DNA of 64,000 nucleotides from an uncultured Verrucomicrobiae bacterium (lineage in GTDB: Bacteria > Verrucomicrobiota > Verrucomicrobiia > Limisphaerales > UBA11358). The DNA is taken from the NCBI GenBank assembly GCA_963754775.1, contig CAVWHM010000023.1, forward strand, positions 19,734 through 83,733, given 5' to 3'. The translations under genes and the position numbers were made by a program. Positions 1,588 through 43,001 of the stretch are shown in pieces; the first letter of the stretch is position 1; every line of letters begins with the position of its first letter. The notes under the pieces were generated by a model. The model had not been told where the DNA came from, made no database searches, and saw nothing but the letters and a program-made list of their open reading frames with translations.

Positions 1588-2856
1588 ATGCCCGCAGCCA
1601 CAACCGAGACGACCCCGGCAGGTTCCACTTCGCATCATGCCGCCTTTTTTCGCCAGAGCGGCTGGCTGATGATTGCGAATGTGGCCAGCGGCTTGTTGAT
1701 GTACGCAGTCCATTTGTTGAACAAAAAGATCCCGCCGGCGGAATACGGCGTTTTCGGCGTGTTGCTGGCAGTGGTGATGTTCGTGCCGAACATGCCGCTG
1801 CAAATGGTGTTTGCCCAGCAGACGGCCCGGGCGCTGGCCACGAACCGGGAGCGCGAACTGGCGGGGATGATCCGGCTGGCCTGGCTGGGAACGCTTGGAC
1901 TGTGTCTCTTGTTGGCCATCGGCGTGGGGATCTGGCAGGCGGAGATTCTGGCGGCCTGGAAATTGGCGAACCCGGCCGGCTTGTGGATTACGCTGTTGGT
2001 GGTGTTGCTTTCGTTTTGGCTGCCGCTGTTCTGGGGTGTGTTGCAGGGGCAACAGGATTTTTTCTGGCTGGGCTGGTCGAACATTTTCAACGCCGCCGGC
2101 AGGCTGGGCCTGGCGTCGTTCATCGTGCTGCTGCTCGGTGGTTACGCGGCGGGAATGATGGTGGGAGTTTGCCTGGGGCTGGTCACGGCGGTCGGCATCA
2201 GCATCTGGCAAACGCGGTCCCTGTGGCTGAGGCACGCGCAACCGTTCGACTGGCGCCGCCTGCTGGCGCAAATCGGCCCGCTGATGCTGGGGTTTGGCGC
2301 GGTGCAATTTTTTTTCACAGCCGATACAATGTTCGTGAAGGCATATTTCTCCGGCGATGATGCGGCGTTTTATGTGAGCGCCGGGACTTTGTCGCGCGGA
2401 CTTCTGTGGCTGGTGGTGCCGCTGGCGACGGTAATGTTTCCAAAAATTGTTCACAGCGTCGCGCGATCGGAAAAGAGCAACCTGCTGGGCATCGTGCTGC
2501 TCGGCACAGCCGTTCTGGCGGCGGGCGGCGCGCTGGGGCTGACGGTGCTGGGACCGTTGGTCATCAAGCTGGCTTACTCGAAAGACTATGTTTCCGTCGC
2601 TGCGGCGGTGTTGCCGTGGTATGCGTGGGCGATGGTGCCGCTGTCCCTGGCCTACGCGCTCGTCAACAACCTGCTGGCGCGGTCGCAATTCCGCATCGTG
2701 CCGGTGCTGTTGCTGCTCGCCGCGGTGTACGGTGTTGCGTTGACTCAATTTCACGACAGCCTGATAACGGTGCTGAAAACCCTCGGTGTTTTCAACCTGC
2801 TGCTGCTGGGCGCGTGTGTGTGGTTCACGTGGGGCAAAATAGGAGATAGGAAATAG
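1588..2856 (+). CDS. Polysaccharide flippase/Wzx-like (MOP superfamily) membrane protein
   Basis: 422 aa, about 12 hydrophobic segments, EYGVFG motif, next to a GT2 gene. Confidence 0.7.
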   Translation: MPAATTETTPAGSTSHHAAFFRQSGWLMIANVASGLLMYAVHLLNKKIPPAEYGVFGVLLAVVMFVPNMPLQMVFAQQTARALATNRERELAGMIRLAWLGTLGLCLLLAIGVGIWQAEILAAWKLANPAGLWITLLVVLLSFWLPLFWGVLQGQQDFFWLGWSNIFNAAGRLGLASFIVLLLGGYAAGMMVGVCLGLVTAVGISIWQTRSLWLRHAQPFDWRRLLAQIGPLMLGFGAVQFFFTADTMFVKAYFSGDDAAFYVSAGTLSRGLLWLVVPLATVMFPKIVHSVARSEKSNLLGIVLLGTAVLAAGGALGLTVLGPLVIKLAYSKDYVSVAAAVLPWYAWAMVPLSLAYALVNNLLARSQFRIVPVLLLLAAVYGVALTQFHDSLITVLKTLGVFNLLLLGACVWFTWGKIGDRK

Positions 2857-2934
2857 CAGATGGGAGCTGGGGAATAAAAACTTGGTTCTCCAAATCTGTG
2901 CCCTAACTCCCAACTTCTATCTGCCATCTCCTAA
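2840..2934. repeat. Inverted 7-mer tandem arrays (ATAGGAG-like / CTCCTAA-like) at a convergent gene junction
   Basis: ataggag ataggaa atagcag atgggag ctgggga ... ccctaac tcccaac ttctatc tgccatc tcctaa. Confidence 0.7.
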
Positions 2935-17293: not shown

Positions 17294-20200
17294 GTGCAGG
17301 CGCGCTTCCTTCTCGGTCCCGCCGGCAGCGGCAAGACATTCCGCTGCCTTGCCGAAATTCGCGCCGCCTTGCAGGAAGACGCGGAGGGTTCGCCGTTGGT
17401 CCTGCTCGCGCCCAAACAGGCCACCTTTCAGCTCGAACGGCAGTTGCTCAATTCCGAATGGTGGGGCGAACGGCCCGTCCCGCCCGGCGGCGATCCGCGC
17501 GATCCAAAAGCAACTTCATCCGGCGGCTCGCCGGGCCTTCGCCGCGACGAAGCGGCTTCGCCCGCGCAGGCGGGAGTCTCGCCCCACCAGCTTTCGGGCT
17601 ACACGCGACTCCAAATTTTTTCATTCGAGCGGCTCGCACTGTTCGTCTTTGAAAAACTGCGGGTCGCGCCGCCGCAACTGCTCACCGAGGAAGGCCGCGT
17701 GATGGTCTTGCGTGCCTTGTTGATGCTGCATGAAAATGAATTGAAGTTGTTCCGCCGAAGCGCCCGCCGGCCGGGTTTCGCCCGGGAACTCAGCCGGTTG
17801 CTCGGTGAATTGCAGCAACACCAATTCACATCCGCCAAACTCCGCGCCCTCGCCTCCCGCCTGGCCGACCAACGCGAATTGCAGGATAAACTCCAAGACC
17901 TCGCGCTGCTGCTCGATGCTTATGCACACTGGTTGACCGAACATGAATTGCAGGATGCGAACCGGTTGCTGGATTTCGCAACGGACGCCTTAAGGGAACT
18001 CCGAACTCCCATCCTTCGCCCAGGAGCTACGGAGGGCAGGCCGAACTCGGAACTCCGATGTTCCGCCCTGTGGCTCGACGGCTTCGCGGAAATGACGCCA
18101 CAGGAATTGGACTTGCTCGCCGCCATCCTGCCGCATTGCGGGCGCGCGACACTGGCGTTCTGCCTCGAAAATGAACCCAAAGCCGAAACTACATGGTTTT
18201 CCATCTGGTCGTCCGTCGGCAAGACCTTTCAACAATGCCGGGAACGGCTCGCGAATCTGCCGCGTTGTGAAATCAGCGTTGAAATCCTCAAACGCCATCC
18301 GCAAAAAAACCGCTTTGCCCGGGATTCTGCGCTGCGGCATTTGGAGGCCGGCTGGCAAAGCAGCACGCGCGTCCCGCCTGCGAAATCCGAGGCCGACGAG
18401 GCTGCGCTGCCTTCGGTCCAAATTACAGTCTGTCAAAATCCCGAAGCCGAGGCCGCGTTCGCCGCGCGCGAAATTGTAAAATTTGTCCGCGCCGGCGCGC
18501 GGTTCCGCGACTGCGCCGTGCTCGTGCGGAACCTGGACGGATATCACAAACCGCTGGCGCGCGCATTTCGCCGCTATGGTGTCCCGTTTTTCCTGGATCG
18601 CCGTGAATCCGTCGCCCATCACCCGCTGGCCGAACTCACCCGCAGCGCATTCCGCACGGCGGCCTTCGATTGGCCGCACGACGACTGGTTTGCCGCGCTC
18701 AAGGCCGGATTCTCCGGGGTTGAAGAAATCGAAATTGACCGGCTCGAAAATGCCGCACTTGAATTCGGCTGGCGCGGCAATAAATGGCGCGAACCATTGC
18801 CGACCGGGGACCCTTCGCTTGAATGCCTGCGCAAAAAGATTTTCCCGCCGTTTGGGGATTTCGCCGTGCGGCTCACGCGACATAAAAACCAGCCGACCGG
18901 CGAGCAATTGGCTGAAGCCTTGCGCGAGTTTTGGGACGCACTCGACGTGGAAAAGACACTCGAAAAATGGAGCCTGCCCGAACGGGAAACCGCGTCACCC
19001 GTCACCCGTCACCAGTCACTTCATTCGACCGTCTGGGAACAAATGAACGTGTGGCTGGACAACGTAGCGCGCGCGTTTTCACGCGAAGCGCTGCCCTTGC
19101 GCGACTGGCTGCCGGTTTTGGAGGCCGGGCTGGCAAATCTGACCGTCGGTGTGATCCCTCCCGTGCTCGATGAAGTGCTGGTCGGCGCCATTGACCGCGC
19201 CCGCAATCCAAACTTGAAATTCACGCTGGTGCTCGGTGTGAACGAATCCGTCTTTCCCGCCGCGCCCGCCGCGCCCCCCATTTTGACGGACGCTGACCGC
19301 GATGAACTGGAACAAGGGGGCGTCACGCTCGGCCCGGATTTGCGTGAACGGCTGGCGCGGGAACGTTTCTACGGTTACATCGCCTGCACCCGCGCCAGCG
19401 AAAAACTGGCCGTGACCTTTGCCCGTCACGATGCCGATGGCAAAACCCTGAATCCATCGCCGTTTGTCTCGCAGTTGCAGCGGTTGTTTCCCAAACTGGA
19501 AATCGAGGAATTCAGCGGCGAAATCGGCCTGGCGGAAGTGGTGCATCCCATCGAAATCGCCTCGCCGCTCGTAGAACTAAACTCCCCTCACCCGGCCTTC
19601 GGCCACCCTCTCCCCGCCATGCGGCGCGAGGGACGGGGTGAGGGGCTCGACGACCAATGGTCTGAATTGCTTGAACTCCCGATGTTAAAAAAGTTCGCCG
19701 AGCGTTTACGCCGGTTGCGTGAGCCGGATCCAGCAGAAGATTTGTCGCCGGGACTGGCGGAAAGGCTTTTTGGCCCGGGGCTGCGGACTTCGGTGAGCCG
19801 GCTCGAGGAGTTTGCCCAATGCCCGTTCCGGTTTTTTGTCCGCAGCGGTTTGCGGGCCGGCGAGCGGAAGATTTTTGAACTCGACGCGCGGGAACGGGGC
19901 AGTTTCCAGCACGACGTGTTGAAAGTTTTCCATGAACGATTGGCCGCCGAAGGCAGACGCTGGCGCGATTTGACGCCGCCCCGGGCGCGGGAACGGATTC
20001 GCGCCATCGCGGTTGAATTGACGGAAAATTTCCGCGGCGGATTGATGCGCGACACGGCGCAGACCCGGTTCGAGGCGCGGGCGATGGCCGAATCATTGCA
20101 GGATTTCATCGAGGTCGTGGTGACGTGGCTGCGGGAGCAGAACGAATTTGATCCGGCGGCGGCGGAAATGGATTTCGGCGGTGACGACGCTCGCGCGCCG

Positions 20201-23992: not shown

Positions 23993-25852
23993 CTAGTGAT
24001 ACTCCTGCAACGTCTTCACGCCGTAGCCCGATTTCTTGAGCGCCGCGATGCCGAGCGCGGCCGCTTTCGCGCCGCTCAATGTCGTCATAATCGGCGTGCC
24101 GGTATAGACGGCCGTCGTGCGGATTTTGATTTCGTCGGCGCGCGGCGTGGCGCCGCTCGGCGTGTTGATGACGAACTGGATTTCCTTGTTCTTGAGCAGG
24201 TCAATCGCATTGGGTCGGCCCTCGGCGAGCTTGAAAATGCGCTGAACTTTCAGCCCGGCCTTTTCCAAAACGGTGGCGGTGCCGCTGGTGGCGACCAGCT
24301 CAAAGCCCAGTTCGACAAACTGTTTTGCCACCGCCGTGGCCTGCTTTTTGTGCGCGTCGCTCACGCTGATGAAAATCTTCCCGCTCAGCGGCAGGGACGC
24401 GCCGGCGGCGATTTGCGATTTCGCGTAGGCGATGCCGAGGTCGGCGTCCAGGCCCATGACCTCGCCGGTCGAGCGCATTTCCGGCGAGAGCAAAATGTCC
24501 TGCCCGCGAAAACGGTTGAACGGGAAAACCGACTCCTTCACCGTCCAATGTTTCGGCCGGATTTCCTTCGTGAAGCCGAGTTCCTTGAGCGTCTTGCCGG
24601 CCATGACTTTCGCCGCGAGCTTAGCCAGCGGCACGCCGATGGCCTTGGATACGAACGGCACGGTGCGCGACGCGCGCGGATTCACTTCGAGCACGAAAAC
24701 CTTTTCGTCCTTGACGGCATATTGCACGTTCATCAGGCCGATGACCTTCAATTCACGCGCCATGGCGTGGGTGTAATCGCGGATCGTTTCGATGACCTTT
24801 TTGGAAAGCGTGTGCGGCGGCAGTACCATCGCCGCATCACCGGAGTGTACGCCGGCAAATTCGATGTGCTCCAGTATTCCACCAATGACAATGGTGCCTT
24901 TTTCGGAGTTCGGAGTTCGGAGTTCGGCCTGCCCTCCGTAGCCCCTGGGCGAAGGATGGGAGTTCGGAGTTTCGAACTGGCCGACATCCGCAATGCAATC
25001 CACGTCCACTTCTGCCGCGTCCTCCAAAAATTTGTCCACGAGCACCGGGCGTTTCGGCGATGCCTCGACCGCGAAGCGCATGTAATGTTGAAGCTCGGCG
25101 TCGGAATAAACGATTTGCATCGCGCGGCCGCCCAGCACAAAAGACGGACGGACCAGGATGGGGTAACCGAGTTTTTGGGCGACCTTGAGCGCCTCGGTTT
25201 CGTTGGTGGCAATGCCGTTGGGCGGTTGCGGAATCTCGAGTTTGTCGAGCATCGCGGCGAAGAGCTTGCGGTCCTCGGCAATTTCGATGCCCTGCGGCGA
25301 GGTGCCGATGATGTTGACGCCGTTTTTCTGGAGGCCGAGCGCGAGGTTGAGCGGCGTCTGGCCGCCGAATTGCGCAATGGCGCCCCAGCACTGTTCGCGT
25401 TCGTAAATGTGCAGCACGTCTTCGAGCGTGAGCGGCTCGAAGAAAAGCTGGTCGCTCGTGTCATAGTCGGTGGAGACGGTTTCCGGGTTGGAGTTGACCA
25501 TGATGGTCTCGAACCCGTCTTCCTTGAGCGCGAACGCGGCGTGGACGCAGCAGTAATCGAATTCAATGCCCTGCCCGATGCGGTTCGGCCCGCCGCCCAG
25601 GATCATCACCTTTTTCTTCGGCGTCTTTCTGACTTCATCGTCGCCGCGGTCGTAGGTCGAATAATAATAGGGCGTGTAAGCCTCGAACTCGGCGGCGCAG
25701 GTGTCCACGAGCCGGTAACTGGGCACGAGGCCGAGCTTTTTCCGCCGGGCGCGGATTTCATCCTCGGTGGCGCCGGTCAAATGGGCGATCTGCCGGTCGG
25801 AAAAACCCAAACCTTTTGCTTTGGCCAACAATTCAGGATTCAGTGGCGCCAT
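23993..25852 (-). CDS. carB: Carbamoyl-phosphate synthase large subunit, C-terminal half only
   Basis: Begins at the oligomerisation domain (AKGLGFSDRQIA); VDTCAAEF, GGGPNRIGQGIEFDY, EVNPRASRT, MGS domain. Confidence 0.9.
   Translation of the reverse strand: MAPLNPELLAKAKGLGFSDRQIAHLTGATEDEIRARRKKLGLVPSYRLVDTCAAEFEAYTPYYYSTYDRGDDEVRKTPKKKVMILGGGPNRIGQGIEFDYCCVHAAFALKEDGFETIMVNSNPETVSTDYDTSDQLFFEPLTLEDVLHIYEREQCWGAIAQFGGQTPLNLALGLQKNGVNIIGTSPQGIEIAEDRKLFAAMLDKLEIPQPPNGIATNETEALKVAQKLGYPILVRPSFVLGGRAMQIVYSDAELQHYMRFAVEASPKRPVLVDKFLEDAAEVDVDCIADVGQFETPNSHPSPRGYGGQAELRTPNSEKGTIVIGGILEHIEFAGVHSGDAAMVLPPHTLSKKVIETIRDYTHAMARELKVIGLMNVQYAVKDEKVFVLEVNPRASRTVPFVSKAIGVPLAKLAAKVMAGKTLKELGFTKEIRPKHWTVKESVFPFNRFRGQDILLSPEMRSTGEVMGLDADLGIAYAKSQIAAGASLPLSGKIFISVSDAHKKQATAVAKQFVELGFELVATSGTATVLEKAGLKVQRIFKLAEGRPNAIDLLKNKEIQFVINTPSGATPRADEIKIRTTAVYTGTPIMTTLSGAKAAALGIAALKKSGYGVKTLQEYH
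24902..24976 (-). repeat. (AACTCCG)n + CCTTCG..GCTACGG composite, in frame in carB
   Basis: Peptide FETPNSHPSPRGYGGQAELRTPNSEK between VDCIAD and GTIVIGGI. Confidence 0.85.
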
Positions 25853-28080: not shown

Positions 28081-29301
28081 TTACGCCACCCGCGCCGTCA
28101 GCAACAAATCCGGGCCGAGCCGTTTCCACTCGACGTCGCGAAGCGGAAGCGCATCCGCCAGGGATTTCGCACCTTCGCCCGCCACGGCCTTTCGTGAATC
28201 GCGTCCGCCCAGAATTTTCGGCGCATAAAAAAACGCCACGCGGTGCGCGAGTCCGCCGAGCAAAAATGATGCATTCACCTCGCCACCGCCTTCGACCAGC
28301 AGGCTCATGACGTTTTCGGCGGCGAGTTTTCGAAGCAACCAGGGCAAGTTGATTTGTGGGTGGGACGGGGCTGCTGACGAGCCGGCTCGCGAGGACACTC
28401 GCCCCACCTTGATTGTGGGCGCAACCATGACGTTCACGCGTTTGGCCAGTGTTGCCACGCGGGGCTTCGGCGCACGATTGCACACGACAATCGTCGTCAG
28501 CGCGGCATATTTGTCGCTCACGACTTTGGCCTTCAACGGCGTCCGCGCCAGCGAATCCAAAACAATCCGGCGCAGTCGCGGATTGTGGACTGTGGACTGT
28601 GGACTGTGGACTGGCCGAAACGTCAGACTCGGATTGTCCGCCAGAATTGTGTTGATGCCCACCAGGACCGCATCGCTGCCTTGCCGGAGTTTCATTCCGT
28701 ACGCGCGTGCTTTCTCGCCGGTGATCCATTTCGATTCGCCGCTGGCAGTGGCAATTTTACCGTCCAAGGTCATCGCCGCCTTGACGGTGACAAATGGCAT
28801 GCGATGGACAATCCAGTGATTAAATGCCTCGTTCAGCCGCACACACTCATCGGCAAGTTTTTGGTGGGGCGAGGCTACTGACGAGCCGTGCTCCGGCTCG
28901 CGAGGACGCTCGCCCCACCGCGTCACATCAATCCCTGCGCGTTTCAGAATCTTGAATCCCTTTCCCGCGTGTTTCGGGTTCGGGTCAACTGCACCAACAA
29001 CCACGCGCTTGATGCCGGCGACGATGATGGCGTCGGTGCAGGGCGGCGTGCGACCGTGCGTGGAACACGGTTCGAGCGTCACGTAAAGCGTCGCTCTACT
29101 CAAATTGTGGCCGCGTTTCTGCGCATCGCGGAGCGCCTCGATTTCCGCGTGCGGCAGGCCTGCGCGCCGGTGCCAGCCACGCCCGATGATTTTGCCGCCC
29201 TTCACCAAAACCGCGCCGACCATCGGATTTGGCGAAGTCATGCCGTAACCGCGCCGGGCGAGCCGGAGGGCGAGGCGCACGAATTGATGATGATTAACCA
29301 C
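28081..29301 (-). CDS. ribD: Bifunctional pyrimidine deaminase/reductase RibD with three repeat-derived inserts
   Basis: SPNPMVGAV, HAE, TLEPCS..PPC, AMTLDGK, LVEGGG. Confidence 0.95.
   Translation of the reverse strand: MVNHHQFVRLALRLARRGYGMTSPNPMVGAVLVKGGKIIGRGWHRRAGLPHAEIEALRDAQKRGHNLSRATLYVTLEPCSTHGRTPPCTDAIIVAGIKRVVVGAVDPNPKHAGKGFKILKRAGIDVTRWGERPREPEHGSSVASPHQKLADECVRLNEAFNHWIVHRMPFVTVKAAMTLDGKIATASGESKWITGEKARAYGMKLRQGSDAVLVGINTILADNPSLTFRPVHSPQSTVHNPRLRRIVLDSLARTPLKAKVVSDKYAALTTIVVCNRAPKPRVATLAKRVNVMVAPTIKVGRVSSRAGSSAAPSHPQINLPWLLRKLAAENVMSLLVEGGGEVNASFLLGGLAHRVAFFYAPKILGGRDSRKAVAGEGAKSLADALPLRDVEWKRLGPDLLLTARVA
28359..28408 (-). repeat. GTGG REP-like doublet (family D) in frame in ribD
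   Basis: Peptide VGRVSSRAGSSAAPSH; arms match 28863-28919. Confidence 0.75.
28584..28611 (-). repeat. (TGTGGAC)x4 perfect heptamer array in ribD
   Basis: Four exact copies; peptide VHSPQSTVHN. Confidence 0.85.
28863..28919 (-). repeat. GTGG REP-like doublet (family D), 57 bp in frame in ribD
   Basis: GGTGGGGCGAG...CTCGCCCCACC; peptide WGERPREPEHGSSVASPH; a half copy lies at 28053-28077. Confidence 0.85.
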
Positions 29302-38439: not shown

Positions 38440-40575
38440 ATGGAAGAGCAGATTTTAAGATTACTGGGCCGGCGGGATTATGCGCCGGCCAATGTGCCGG
38501 AATTGCTCCGGCATCTCCGGCTGGCGCCCCATCGCCAGCAGGAATTGCAGGGGGTGCTGCGCCGGCTGGAACAGTCCGGTCAGATCGCCCGCACGAAGGG
38601 GAATCGTTACATCCAGTCGCGCGAGGCGGACCTCGTCCCGGGCCGGATTCGCATCAATCGCCAGGGGAAAGGCTTTTTGCAGCCGGACGATCCGGAGTTG
38701 AAGGAGATCATGATTCCGGAAGGGGCGACATCCACGGCGCTCCACGAAGATCGCGTGCTGGTGCGGCGCGATGTCCGGGCGAAAGGGTTGAGCCCCGGGC
38801 GCCTCGAGCAGGAGACGGGCGTGGTGATTCGCATCCTGGAACGGAAACGGACGCAACTGGTCGGCACGTTGCAGCGGGGCCGCGAGTTTCTTTACGTGAT
38901 TCCCGATGACCCGCGCATGCCACACGACATTTATGTGCCGCAACCGCGCGACGTCGGCCGGCCCGCGCGCGTCGGCGACAAGGTCGTGGTGGAGTTGCAC
39001 GAATGGGAATCGCGGCACACCAACCCGGAAGGCGAAATCATCGAGGTGCTCGGCTCGCCGGACGAGGAAGGGGTGGACATGTTGTCGGTGCTGCGTCAGT
39101 ACAACCTGCCGCTGCATTTTCCGAAGGAGGCGTTGCACGAAGCGCGGGCCATCGGGACGGCTATTTCGCCGCCGGAACTGGCCGGGCGCGAAGATTGCCG
39201 GCGGCATCAGGTCGTCACCATTGATCCGGACGACGCCAAGGATTTTGACGACGCGATTTGTCTGCAGCGGGGTTCGCCGGGACATTGGAAACTGTGGGTG
39301 CACATTGCGGACGTGTCGCATTATGTGAAACCGGGCACGGCGCTGGACAACGAAGCGCGCCGCCGGGGCAATTCAACCTATCTGGTGGACCGGGTGATCC
39401 CGATGCTGCCGGAGGCGTTGAGCAACGAGTTGTGCTCGTTGAAACCGGACGTGGATCGCCTGACCAAATGCGTGGAATTTCTGGTGTCGGACGAAGGGCA
39501 CGGGTGTTGAAGGCGAGGTTTTATCCGGCGGTGATTCATTCGCAACGCCGGTTCACTTACCGGGAAGTGCTGGCGATTTTGCAGCGGAAACCAGGCGACC
39601 GGATTGAGCAGATGTTGCATGACGCGAACACTGCTGGCCCAGCGGATCCGGCGACTGCGGTTCAAGGCGGGTTCGCTGGACCTGGATTTTCCTGAAATGA
39701 AAATCCGGCTGGATGAACAGGGCCGGGTGGAGCGCATTGAGAAGGTCGAGAACGATGTTTCCCACCAGTTGATCGAGGAATTCATGTTGCTGGCCAACGA
39801 GGCGGTGGCGGGCCAGTTGATGGGCCGGAATGTGCCGGCGATTTACCGGGTGCATGAGGAGCCGGACGAACGGCGGTTGCAGGAATATCGCGAGGAAGTG
39901 CTCAGCCATCACGTGCCCTGCGCGAATTTGACGAAGCGGCCGGAAGTTCAGAAGCTCCTGCAGAAGCTCGGCACGATTCCCATCGGCGCGGCGCTCAAGA
40001 TCGGGTTTCTCCGGTCACTCATGCGCGCCCGTTACGCGGTCGAGCCGCTCGGTCACTACGGCCTGGCCAAGACCAAATACACGCATTTCACGTCGCCCAT
40101 CCGGCGGTATGCCGACCTGGTGGTGCATCGCGCATTGTTTCAAAAGAGCCACGGCCCGGTCCATTCATTAAAGGAAACCGCGGAGCATATTTCCGATACG
40201 GAACGAAACTCCGCCGACGCCGAGCGGGACAGCAAGGACGTGAAGCTGTATGCCTTCCTGAAGGCGCAGCTCAAGTCGCCGAGGCCAACGCCGTATCCGG
40301 CGCTGGTGATTGACGTGCGCAATTTTGGTTTCTTTGTGGATGTGCCGGGGCTGGCGATGAGCGGGCTGGTGCATCTTTCCTTTCTGGAGGACGATTTTTA
40401 TGTGTTCGACTCAGACCGGAGCCAGTTGGTCGGCCGGCGTACCCGCCGGGTCATCCGGCTCGGCGACAACGTGCGGGTGCAGGTGGCCAAGGTGGACAGT
40501 TTCAAGAAGCAGGTGGATTTCCGGCTGGCTCGGGATGGCGACGAAGGACGCGACACGTTCTGCGAAAGGGCGTGA
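38440..40575 (+). CDS. rnr: Ribonuclease R; apparent frameshifts at about 39500 and 39630
   Basis: TIDPDDAKDFDDA, HIADVSHYV, LIEEFMLLAN, HFTSPIRRYADL, S1 domain, across three frames. Confidence 0.88.
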
Positions 40576-40683
40576 ATCGGATTCGAAGCACCGGCGGAAG
40601 CCGGCTGCGCGCTCGCGACGGAATTGGCGATAGGACGACGTTGTTGTAAAAGTCGAGAAACTCGCTGCGTTGGCGGAAAAAAC

Positions 40684-40778
40684 TCTCAACATTCAACTTT
40701 CAACGCCCAACCTCCAATGGTTTGGCGCGGTTGGCTTTCATTGAATTTTCGATGTTGAATGTTGAGCGTTGAATGTTC
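40684..40778. repeat. Inverted 7-mer arrays (AACnnTC / GAnnGTT) without a gene
   Basis: aacattc aactttc aacgccc aacctcc ... cgatgtt gaatgtt gagcgtt gaatgtt. Confidence 0.75.
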
Positions 40779-40786
40779 TCTTATTT

Positions 40787-41684
40787 TCAACGCAGCCGGA
40801 ACCCGCCCTGAAACACTATCTCGGCCACGGTCACAATCAAAAACACCGCGCTGACGAGGGCGTTGAGGCGGAAGAAGGCGAGGTTGATCCAGTTCAAGCT
40901 GCGGCGGCGGGCAATCCAGTGTTCCAACACCAGACAGCCAACGATGACGAACCAGCCGGCGAGATACGCGATGCGGAACTGGCAGAGCAATCCGAACAGC
41001 AGCAGCAGTCCGCACATGATCATGTGCGCCAGAAACGCGGCGGCCAGCGCGTTCTTCGGTCCCCACGCCACCACGAGCGAATGCAGGCCATGGGATTTGT
41101 CGAACTCGTAATCCTGCAGCGCGTAAATGATGTCGAATCCGACCAGCCACAACACCACCGCCAGCGCGAGCGTGGTCATCTGCAAAATTTCCAGAACGGA
41201 AACGTCCGCGCCTTTCACCGCCAGCCACGCGCCGACCGGCGCGAGCGCCAGGGAAAGGCCCAGGAAAACGTGCGTGTAATCTGTGAACCGTTTTGTGAAC
41301 GAATAGAAACAAATCACCAACAATGCGATGGGCGACAGGTAAAAGCACAATGGATTGAGAAAGCAACTGGCGACGACCAACCCCGCCGCGGACAAAATAC
41401 AAAGTGCGATTGCGCTCGTCAGCGAAATTTGTCCGGTCGGGCAAATGGCGGCTGGCCGTGCGCGGATTCAGCGCATCGAATTTTCTGTCCACAATGCGAT
41501 TGAAAGCCATCGCACAGGTTCGCGCACAAATCATCGCGGCCAGAATCAGTCCGAAAATCTTCCAGCCCGGCCAGCCACGGTGATCGCGCGCCGCCACCAT
41601 CATCGCCGCCAGCGCAAATGGCAGCGCGAAAACCGTGTGCGGGAAACGCACAAACGAAGCCCATTTTTGAATGATTGAGAACAT
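40787..41684 (-). CDS. UbiA-like prenyltransferase (MqnP-type); apparent frameshift at about 41435
   Basis: HTVFALPFA, AMAFNRIVDRKFDALNPRT, GFDIIYALQDYEFD. Confidence 0.85.
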
Positions 41685-42121
41685 CGAACGTTGAACTTTG
41701 AACGCTCGAACCTCGAACTGAACAACAAAATTACGTCGCGTGCAGGTTTTTGCGATGTTGATGCGCTTTGCTTTTTGGCCAGTTTGTTTCGTTCAGCGGT
41801 CTGGACGCTGGCTTTGAAAATCCGAATCAACTCCTCGCTCTCAACCTGCACAAAGGCAAGTTGAGGATCACCCCGCAGCCAGCGCTTTCGCTCGACCAGT
41901 TTGACCCAGCGGCACGTTTCCCGCAATTCCTTGAGGCAGATCTTCATTTTGTGGATGAAATCCTCGGCGGATTCCGGCGTTTGGGCTTCGCCATGGTTCC
42001 CATAGGGCGAGGTGCCTGACCGCAAAAGTTGGCCGGAAATGTGATTCCCCGCCCGCGAGTTTGGCAATTTTTCTGAAACATCAATCACTGCCGATGCGAA
42101 TTCCAAGGGTCGCTCTTCCAA
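41600..42121 (-). CDS. Four helix bundle protein (TIGR02436/23S-IVP-like); start and stop uncertain
   Basis: YDLEERxLEFA..LP..QLLRSGTS..N.GEA..ES..DFIHKMKICLKELRET..W. Confidence 0.85.
   Translation of the reverse strand: MEERPLEFASAVIDVSEKLPNSRAGNHISGQLLRSGTSPYGNHGEAQTPESAEDFIHKMKICLKELRETCRWVKLVERKRWLRGDPQLAFVQVESEELIRIFKASVQTAERNKLAKKQSASTSQKPARDVILLFSSRFERSKFNVRCSQSFKNGLRLCVSRTRFSRCHLRWRR
41676..41724 (+). repeat. 7-mer array (nnnGAAC)n, left arm flanking the four-helix-bundle gene
   Basis: gaac atcgaac gttgaac tttgaac gctcgaac ctcgaac. Confidence 0.8.
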
Positions 42122-42159
42122 GTCATACTTTCGGCCTCTATTCCAATCGGCGCACCTCG

Positions 42160-42250
42160 TTCGAAGTTTTTTTGTTCAGAGTTCAAAGTTCGATGTTCGA
42201 GGTTCAAAGTTTCCGCCATTTGATTCGGTATCGGATGTTCGATGTTCGAT
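42160..42250 (+). repeat. 7-mer arrays (GTTCnnn)n, right arm, inverted relative to the left arm
   Basis: gttcaga gttcaaa gttcgat gttcgag gttcaaa ... gatgttc gatgttc gat. Confidence 0.8.
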
Positions 42251-42260
42251 TTTTCCCATA

Positions 42261-42818
42261 TCATTCCTTTTCCTCCGCCCAGCGCGAAACAAGTTGTTGC
42301 GGCAGCCCCAGATGGTCCAGCACACGCGCGACCACGGTGTCCACGACATCCTGGACGGTTTTCGGATTCGAGTAAAAACCCGGGTTCGCCGGCAGAATCG
42401 TCGCGCCCGCCTGCAGCAGCAATTCCATGTTTTTGACGTGGACGAGGCTCAATGGCGTTTCGCGCGGGACCAGAATCAACTTTCTTCGTTCCTTCAAAAC
42501 CACGTCCGCGGCGCGGAGCAGCACGTCCTCGCTGTAACCGTGCGCGATGCGGCCCATCGTGCCCATCGTGCAGGGGATGACGACCATGGCATCCGGCGGA
42601 TTCGAGCCGCTGGCGAACGGCGCGTTCATGCTTTTGACGTTGTGTGTCTTGACCCCGGCGGGCAGGCGCAGGCCGCCGGGCAATTCCCCGGCAATGACCT
42701 GTTGCGCGTAATTGCTCATCACGACGTGCAATTCGTGCTGGCGCGGGTCGAGATTGTCCAGCAGACGCTGCGCGTAAAGCGCGCCACTGGCTCCGGTGAT
42801 GGCGACTAAAATCTTCAC
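42261..42818 (-). CDS. ubiX: Flavin prenyltransferase UbiX
   Basis: AITGASG, ASGS, RAADVVLKERRKLILVPRETP, PGFY. Confidence 0.93.
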   Translation of the reverse strand: MKILVAITGASGALYAQRLLDNLDPRQHELHVVMSNYAQQVIAGELPGGLRLPAGVKTHNVKSMNAPFASGSNPPDAMVVIPCTMGTMGRIAHGYSEDVLLRAADVVLKERRKLILVPRETPLSLVHVKNMELLLQAGATILPANPGFYSNPKTVQDVVDTVVARVLDHLGLPQQLVSRWAEEKE

Positions 42819-42881
42819 TCCCGCAAATGATGACGGCGCAATTCATTCGCAGCAAGCACAACAAAGTTTCCGTGCCGGCAA

Positions 42882-42956
42882 ATTTGCGATATACGATTTA
42901 CGATTGACGCGATTTGCTCCGGTGCGCACGTCAATCGTAAATCGCAAATCGTAAAT
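42882..42956. repeat. Inverted 7-mer arrays (ATTTACG / CGTAAAT)
   Basis: atttgcg atatacg atttacg attgac ... gtcaat cgtaaat cgcaaat cgtaaat. Confidence 0.75.
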
Positions 42957-43001
42957 GAGGAAACAGCTTGAGTCCGACTTTGCCTTCCGCACAATGGCCG
43001 C

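Follow-up and report, generated by a model that had tools for sequence, protein, structure and literature searches.

In the REP/REPIN elements (repetitive extragenic palindromes and the hairpins that they form), a single-copy gene for a RAYT (REP-associated tyrosine transposase), which is a Y1 HUH transposase, is flanked by an inverted short repeat that is also dispersed as gene-less hairpins. The short tandemly repeated repetitive (STRR) sequences of cyanobacteria belong to the heptamer repeats that lack an explanation. The PF05635/TIGR02436 proteins form a very large family with solved structures, for which we know of no established function outside the diversity-generating retroelements (DGRs). 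The closest described relatives of the element reported here are the open reading frame (ORF)-bearing intervening sequences of 23S rRNA: in Coxiella burnetii, as described in PMC4990558, an insert of 428 nt in helix 45 is closed by a 28-bp terminal stem that is cut by RNase III in vitro, and tandem GACAGAT heptamers, in strain-variable number, lie upstream of the ATG of the S23p gene. Heptamer repeats have been recorded independently in Xanthomonas, where two genomes carry 70-75 convergent GGGAATC pairs; in that account, heptameric repeats are described as lacking a detailed literature and as over-represented in bacteria and unexplained (PMC4692102). The TAACTGA repeats of the Beggiatoaceae are reported to lie often near start codons (PMC4679880). 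Here we describe a 64,000-nt stretch from an uncultured Verrucomicrobiae bacterium (contig CAVWHM010000023.1, positions 19,734 to 83,733; hereafter the window), in which a four-helix-bundle (4HB) gene of the PF05635/TIGR02436 family, set between inverted arrays of 7-nt units, separates ubiX from ubiA and represents an apparently undescribed and widespread kind of insertable cassette.

The cassette occupies positions 41676-42264 on the minus strand (Table 1). The TGA stop of ubiX overlaps the ATG that opens the cassette ORF (ATGA). The 4HB reading frame takes in the 5' arm, in which, on the minus strand, a block of ATCGAAC units precedes one of TTTGAAC/CTCGAAC units, all of 7 nt; this frame is open through the arm in seven orthologues and, once the indels discussed below are corrected, here as well. 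At the other end, the ubiA ATG (41684-41682) falls inside the last unit of the 3' arm, a start that relatives confirm. When 41660-42262 of the minus strand is folded as RNA, the two arms base-pair with each other and enclose the gene (-200.9 kcal/mol, z -4.4, with none of 20 shuffles as good); the terminal inverted repeats are thus predicted to form a stem around the ORF, and this stem includes 33 covarying arm pairs. The TIGR02436-like gene splitting ubiX and ubiA between inverted 7-mer arrays, and the position of the ubiA start within one of them, had both been recognized in a first-pass annotation of the window and are borne out by the domain matches, by Tandem Repeats Finder (TRF) and by the fold. 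As assembled, the 4HB gene has only a TTG-started frame (42121-41600, minus strand), and even this passes the curated cut-offs of both family models, scoring 36.7 bits against PF05635 (cut-off 33.8) and 63.9 bits against TIGR02436 (cut-off 24; profile positions 4-108 of 109).

Far from being syntenically fixed, the gene is a variable occupant of this junction. Among 27 relatives in which ubiX|ubiA was compared, eight have a 4HB cassette and five an empty site, with the ubiX TGA overlapping the ubiA ATG in three genomes of the same genus (L018, L021, L026) and a gap of 24-25 nt in the other two; ten have fillings of 83-143 nt, several of which are hairpins with other periods, not all being clear hairpins; and four have other inserts, namely two ankyrin-repeat genes, one PF05635 gene of another type and one HicA-domain gene. 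Supported clades in a tree of ubiX plus ubiA mix these junction states. Comparison of the aligned junctions shows the window cassette as an insertion relative to genomes of the same genus. The ankyrin-repeat genes lie at L020:2064-2510 and L028:1055-1501; at L036:2306-2515, the HicA-domain gene is bordered by a heptamer array of the TCCATCC type towards ubiA but not on its other side. Six loci (L014, L024, L029, L030, L033, L037) hold gene-less hairpins with periods of about 8-11 nt, for example of the ACACAGATGAA type; these longer-period hairpins are a different hairpin family at the identical spot.

Comparable turnover is seen immediately upstream of ubiX, where the site is empty in four relatives; a GATTTAC hairpin stands there in the present genome and in four relatives, five relatives have hexamer hairpins, and in two there are half arms. 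The inverted-hexamer hairpins (CTCGTC- or CATCCT-type; L012, L013, L014, L020, L033) sit at exactly the place taken in the present genome by the GATTTAC hairpin. The 4HB gene itself is found at more than one address. The orthogroup of the window gene (E at most 1e-44 and at least 56% identity, other paralogues reaching at most 44%) is present in 25 of 61 genus genomes, which include one unpublished genome (G074). Most copies are at ubiX|ubiA; four (L045, L046, L048, L058) lie between the membrane-fusion-protein (MFP) and resistance-nodulation-division (RND) genes of an efflux system and two (L049, L065) elsewhere, and four genomes (G004, G064, G072, G015) have two copies each. The MFP|RND junction of the present genome is empty, with an ATGA overlap. 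As read from these alignments, one orthogroup is shown to occupy three or more different gene junctions.

The window displays several frame anomalies: the 4HB gene lacks an ATG and reads on into ubiA, and ubiA is spread across two frames. We aligned contigs from three DNA runs and one RNA-library run (X1, X2, X4, X20) to 40600-43000. One base at 41439 is left out in the contigs of all four runs and one base at 41742 in three of the four, and both contigs covering position 42143 carry one T more at that point. Corrected accordingly, ubiA becomes a single ORF, and the 4HB ORF opens at the ATGA overlap, crosses the 5' arm and ends just before the 3' arm. The frame breaks of both genes are hence best read as indel errors of the metagenome-assembled genome. 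A reading of the window 4HB gene as a decaying pseudogene was withdrawn because the contigs of the other runs are free of the window's indels, the frame being intact once 41742 and 42143 are corrected; the ubiA frameshift near 41439 was likewise rejected as biology. RNase R (38440-40575) is also in two frames, the first ORF matching RNB profile positions 1-104 and the second 153-320, and given the indels close by this split is probably another assembly error. Two further contig observations concern the arrays. Contigs of X1 and X2 skip 42818-42960, the GATTTAC hairpin site. One X2 contig joins 41703 to 42234, which would skip the gene, and was left unused: its shorter side is 24 nt, its depth is 33 against about 6 for the strain, and it may derive from another organism or locus.

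The unit takes three forms in the eight orthologue cassettes, ATCGAAC, ATTCAAC or ATCCAAC, with the matching complement in the opposite arm. Over 33 arm pairs, 89.4% of 264 cells are paired and 11 pairs have changed on both sides, the structure being derived from the same alignment and changes within one array not being independent events; none of 500 shuffles reached this pairing, and slid controls gave 25-40%. The alignment therefore shows arms that stay complementary while the unit changes between species. Just inward of the 3' arm, a small GC hairpin of the CCGGC-GAA-GCCGG type covers the last codons and stop of the 4HB gene at six loci (L043, L047, L050, L053, L054, L056) and is absent in the window copy. 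The protein core has a ratio of nonsynonymous to synonymous substitution rates (dN/dS) of 0.10 (139 core codons, 21 pairs), which indicates purifying selection; the N-terminal extension encoded by the array has a dN/dS of 0.47 and is disordered in the structural model. That model, made with AlphaFold2 for the closest intact orthologue (G022, locus L041) from a 17-row alignment, has a core predicted with a pLDDT confidence above 90. It shows a four-helix bundle like those of the solved members of the family, a Foldseek search with the modelled core giving template-modelling (TM) scores of 0.90 to 2RLD and 0.85 to 2GSC, both of which have five chains.

The association of gene and arms extends well beyond this locus. 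All ten PF05635 genes of this genome are bracketed by arms, with units varying by locus and a period of 8-9 in one copy. In six genus genomes with 40 PF05635 loci the inverted-repeat score is at least 26 in 34 (nulls 14-29), and period 7 is best in 27. We also fetched 80 loci by subfamily alignment, of which 79 were usable: 70 of them score at least 30 and 58 exceed the largest null, period 7 being best in 60 of 66. Phyla, taken from record titles, include the Verrucomicrobiota, Acidobacteriota, Nitrospirota, Planctomycetota, Desulfobacterota, Bacteroidota, Chlorobi, Gammaproteobacteria, Chloroflexota, Armatimonadota, Gemmatimonadota and Paceibacterota, among others. In one subfamily the upstream-arm unit has the core R-G-T-Y-Y (G in 45 and T in 44 of 46), with an information content of 5.71 bits as against 2.92 +/- 0.22 for shuffled units; other 4HB subclades have other unit classes, and one subclade keeps its class in different genomes. 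As a rule, genes of the PF05635/TIGR02436 family come as a module with such arms. Of the two outcomes that the first-pass annotation had named as refuting its reading, other family members lacking flanking arrays beyond background and a gene fixed in synteny among relatives, neither is borne out. Individual loci display striking elaborations. In this genome (G000), C13:12405-12530 (L008) has a very long upstream array of about 14 or more GAGTGCG units and, as assembled, an in-frame TAA in its 4HB copy, and C41:6794-7400 (L001) has three arms, with a complete AGTCCAC/GTGGACT hairpin upstream and an extra GTGGACT array downstream of the gene. At L058 of G008 the 3' arm has grown to about 20 units (GTTGGAT/GTTGGTT), and the 5' arm is short and degenerate.

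Heptamer arrays are abundant in the 3.58-Mb genome also apart from these genes. Period 7 is the most frequent tandem period, with 722 of 2758 TRF rows, and a second, purpose-made detector found 145 period-7 arrays, where the other periods between 4 and 12 have 4-26 each and shuffled sequence yields 0-1. Of the array pairs no more than 1500 nt apart, 66 are inverted and 17 direct. Paired structures number about 56, a lower bound given that the detector missed the window's own hairpins; most loops measure 10-60 nt and some are gene-sized. Across the genome, 148 of 217 arrays have no inverted partner by the criterion used. Within unit families the array polarity is fixed (for example, 12/12 and 6/6). 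In the window, five sites besides the cassette had been singled out as having the same layout, and all of them turn out to be hairpins of inverted 7-nt arrays (z -2.4 to -4.7; Table 1), one of them sitting between the convergent ubiA and RNase R genes. Of 54 hairpins placed genome-wide, 38 lie between co-oriented and 6 between convergent genes. The loops are unrelated between copies. An inner unit, GCCCAA/TTGGGC, is seen in just three of nine gene-less copies and nine of 22 cassettes. Three solo arrays of the window, at 18993-19019 (CGTCACC), 24902-24927 (TTCGGAG) and 28580-28613 (GGACTGT), have no local hairpin fold (z 0.1 to 1.5). A stop codon in every unit was considered as the cause of the 7-nt period and dropped, since by eye some units have stops and some do not.

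Table 1. Features of the window that make up the cassette locus, and the gene-less hairpins.
Feature	Coordinates	Strand	Support
ubiX (flavin prenyltransferase), upstream host gene	42261..42818	-	PF02441, E 1e-45
5' arm of cassette	42160..42258	-	TRF rows 42174-42211 and 42234-42250 (period 7); fold pairs it with 3' arm
4HB protein gene (TIGR02436/PF05635)	41731..42264	-	limits after indels from independent contigs
3' arm of cassette, (GTTCGAN)n on minus strand	41676..41724	-	TRF row 41679-41718 (period 7)
ubiA (4-hydroxybenzoate polyprenyltransferase family), downstream host gene	40787..41684	-	PF01040, two frames in window
Gene-less hairpin, cassette's unit family (AACATTC ... GAATGTT)	40684..40778	.	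fold (40675-40790) -35.1 kcal/mol, z -4.6
Gene-less hairpin, other unit family (GATTTAC ... GTAAATC), upstream of ubiX	42882..42956	.	fold (42870-42965) z -4.6
Gene-less hairpin, AACATYS family	50350..50435	.	fold (50340-50445) z -2.4
Gene-less hairpin, inverted 7-nt arrays, TAGGAGA-type unit	2837..2934	.	fold (2825-2945) -43.8 kcal/mol, z -4.5
Gene-less hairpin, inverted 7-nt-type arrays, GGAGGAT-type unit	49585..49655	.	fold (49575-49665) -41.5 kcal/mol, z -4.7

Pattern searches with three variants of the cassette's unit connect the gene to these arrays. All 25 genus genomes with the orthogroup have at least 10 hits and 22 of them at least 20, whereas among the 36 without it 23 have 0-1, eight have 2-9 and five have at least 10, a comparison tempered by the facts that hits are not loci and include the cassette's own arms, and that related genomes are not independent observations. 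The counts of the three variants differ sharply by species, with 170 hits of one of them in G015, 46 in G041 and 162 in G066. The variant of the cassette arms is the dominant one of its genome in 16 of 25 cases, differs in six and is ambiguous in three, where chance would give about one in three. Judged by sequence, gene-less hairpins of the cassette's unit family and polarity are shown to be dispersed in the genome, with a species-specific dominant variant.

These observations can be drawn together in a reading to which we give an even chance, namely that we are dealing with an insertable cassette around a 4HB gene, which has the build of an rRNA intervening sequence and gene-less hairpins as relatives and spreads by a DNA-level route. 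The cassette and the gene-less hairpins would then be one family of insertable elements, and the hairpin arms would be used in their spread. Such an insertion would be tolerated inasmuch as the operon stays translatable: the ATG of the ORF overlaps or abuts the upstream stop, and the 3' arm would supply or abut the downstream start codon. RNase III may also cleave the stem in the transcript, which we take as a side effect and not as the purpose of the arms.

Several results weigh against this reading. The window ORFs and their domain matches reveal no gene for a recombinase, nuclease or polymerase within the cassette, and host functions would therefore be needed for its spread. The short direct repeats at cassette ends (GAATGA, AAAATGA, ATGA) are, as a target-site duplication, indistinguishable from coincidence, since ATGA is also how the cassette itself begins. 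Descent of the gene-less hairpins by internal deletion of a cassette is not shown, because the central segments of eight of nine of them are no closer to 22 cassette interiors than shuffled controls are; as internal-deletion derivatives they accordingly find no support. The co-occurrence of gene and arrays was not reproduced in a second family, GATTTAC with its own 4HB type, for which at least 10 hits are found in 10 of 14 genomes with an orthologue of at least 74% identity as against 25 of 47 without one. Five genomes (G010, G012, G042, G047, G061) are rich in AAC-family arrays in the absence of the cognate gene, and none of the 30 PF05635 loci fetched from them has AAC-family arms. Finally, several proteins of the subfamily are acidic (pI 5.1-6.9), which is not suggestive of simple charge-driven binding of nucleic acids. 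The first-pass proposal of a transposase-free element with autonomous and non-autonomous forms hence survives in part: the several junctions, the species-specific dominant variant and the co-occurrence of gene and arrays speak for it, whereas the second family fails to repeat that co-occurrence, the loops show no homology to cassette interiors and the end repeats are ambiguous.

Both the route by which the element spreads and the part played by its protein are inferences. The 4HB protein is a structural relative of Avd, its own solved relatives crystallize with five chains, and it would probably recognize the repeated unit. We further propose, very tentatively and with considerable doubt, that the 4HB proteins read the arrays, each subunit of a five-membered ring taking up one 7-nt unit, and that, with the help of host replication or repair, they drive a transposase-free, hairpin-mediated spread of their own cassette and of the gene-less hairpins. 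Two enzymatic sources from elsewhere in the genome were entertained and rejected. Two Y1 (IS200/RAYT-like) transposase genes (C50:53037-53360 and C17:10344-10688 of G000) are flanked by REP-like palindromes, and the flanks of both are unrelated to heptamer arrays; these palindromes, by their sequence, are a second, separate hairpin-repeat system of the genome, and involvement of a RAYT in the heptamer arrays was rejected. A reverse-transcriptase (telomerase-like) origin of the arrays was likewise put aside, there being no RVT_1 match in this genome, which is 76% complete.

The alternative that fares best, raised already in the first-pass annotation, places the element at the level of RNA, as an intervening sequence in the transcript: RNase III would cut the stem of the arms, freeing a 4HB mRNA and parting the host cistrons, with mobility being secondary or ancient. 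It is in keeping with a predicted long-range stem that encloses the gene and covaries, with the presence of an RNase III gene in the genome, and with the report on the S23p-bearing intervening sequence of Coxiella burnetii that RNase III cleaves its terminal stem in vitro, the cut falling at the first heptamer in a tandem run of several (PMC4990558). A contig from the RNA library, 93% alike, reaches from the 3' end of ubiX across the 5' arm and halfway into the 4HB gene, which by itself is no proof of transcription; this library was the single metatranscriptome among public RNA data to share sequence with the locus, and the shared part was small. The neighbors of cassettes are co-oriented in 80-86% of calls as against a background of 70%, and yet 14-20% of cassettes face a neighbor on the other strand. 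In this lineage the reading is awkward: the 4HB ORF opens upstream of the 5' arm and takes it into its frame, and the ubiA start is contained in or abuts the 3' arm, so that cleavage of the stem would cost both messages their beginnings. Moreover, stems selected as RNA usually show an excess of G.U pairs, and no such excess is seen here: on the sense strand, the stem mismatches of the 38 hairpins between co-oriented genes comprise 43 G.U as against 48 A.C. Processing alone would also leave the species-specific homogenization of units at dispersed loci unexplained. We regard this alternative as unlikely.

A second alternative would see the arrays as regulatory hairpins of the host, that is, terminators, attenuators, mRNA stabilizers or translational couplers that arose by replication slippage, with the 4HB protein as an autoregulated regulator and the pattern of presence and absence as the outcome of turnover and recombination. 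The hairpins do fill short intergenic gaps, both flanking ORFs ending or starting within 20 nt in at least 13 of 54 by rough gene calls, and the selection on the 4HB protein, the way in which the unit class tracks the protein subclade across genomes, the lack of a mobility gene and the unrelated loops all sit comfortably with such a function. It accounts poorly for a single orthogroup of cassettes at unrelated junctions, and for the swapping of unrelated hairpin families and small genes at two exact sites in close relatives. The sharp differences between species in the dominant variant, moreover, resemble bursts of copying and not slippage site by site, and the arrays are dispensable, because many genomes of the genus have none. 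We judge it distinctly improbable that host regulation explains the locus.

Least probable of all, and in our estimation a long shot, is a passive association, in which palindromes arise by slippage and fold-back copying and 4HB genes are cargo that lands or survives in their loops without acting on the arrays: it would suit the abundance of gene-less arrays in genomes devoid of the cognate gene, including the GATTTAC family, and the other genes found at ubiX|ubiA (the ankyrin-repeat and HicA genes, the latter with its one-sided heptamer array), but it is at odds with an association that, across phyla, is all but universal and peculiar to this protein family, with a conserved unit core tied to one subfamily of a strongly conserved protein, and with the near-absence of the array family (0-1 hits) from most genus genomes without the orthogroup.

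Tying the 4HB family, the heptamer repeats and the classic rRNA intervening sequences together gives each of them a testable partner. The cassette also illustrates how an insertion can occupy the stop/start overlap of an operon of an essential pathway without breaking the operon. On a practical note, start codons annotated downstream of such arrays may fall inside the repeat. Should 4HB proteins indeed read the arrays and drive such a spread, they would define a new class of mobile elements, and would offer an explanation for the excess of heptamers in bacterial genomes as well as for the origin of the ORF-bearing intervening sequences of rRNA.

In terms of known systems, the closest parallel is with those ORF-bearing intervening sequences of 23S rRNA, typified by the helix-45 element of Coxiella burnetii with S23p and by that of Leptospira. 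Common to both are the PF05635 family, which is named after the rRNA element, and terminal inverted repeats that pair into a long stem around the ORF; the Coxiella element too has its heptamers next to the ORF (PMC4990558). The window cassette differs in lying between two protein genes of an operon and not in rRNA, in having arms that are both arrays of units, with the 5' arm translated and the 3' arm carrying the next start codon, and in having gene-less copies dispersed in the same genome. Excision by RNase III has been demonstrated for the rRNA elements only.

With the REP/RAYT systems the cassette shares the organization of a gene flanked by an inverted repeat that is dispersed as gene-less hairpins, and repeat variants that are specific to gene and genome. 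Here, however, the enclosed protein is a 4HB protein with a PF05635 match only and with neither an HUH motif nor a Y1_Tnp domain, the arms are tandem 7-nt arrays and not a single palindrome, and the Y1_Tnp genes of this genome have palindromes of their own as flanks. A transposon with its MITEs (miniature transposable elements that carry inverted repeats) is a less apt model, in that the gene-less copies share no internal sequence with the gene-bearing copy (eight of nine within the null). As for Avd, the accessory protein of DGRs, the predicted fold of the 4HB core is similar, with a TM score of 0.81 to 4DWL and of 0.71-0.76 to the Avd chains of 8UB7 and related DGR ribonucleoprotein entries. 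The likeness in sequence is weak, the bAvd Pfam model being hit below its cut-off only and by another copy; and unlike in DGRs the neighbors are ubiX and ubiA, with no template or variable repeats beside the gene and no RVT_1 in the 76%-complete genome.

Finally, the heptamers of Xanthomonas (GGGAATC) and the Beggiatoaceae (TAACTGA) are likewise tandem repeats of 7 nt that lie between genes and often form convergent inverted pairs. Neither 23S nor S23 nor four helix occurs as a term in the texts of PMC4692102 and PMC4679880, and, by their listings, none of the papers found in our search of the literature with the family names and repeat terms ties PF05635 to heptamer arrays outside rRNA. What sets the present arrays apart from those in the earlier reports of heptamers is that here they are tied to a gene family, that of the 4HB proteins.

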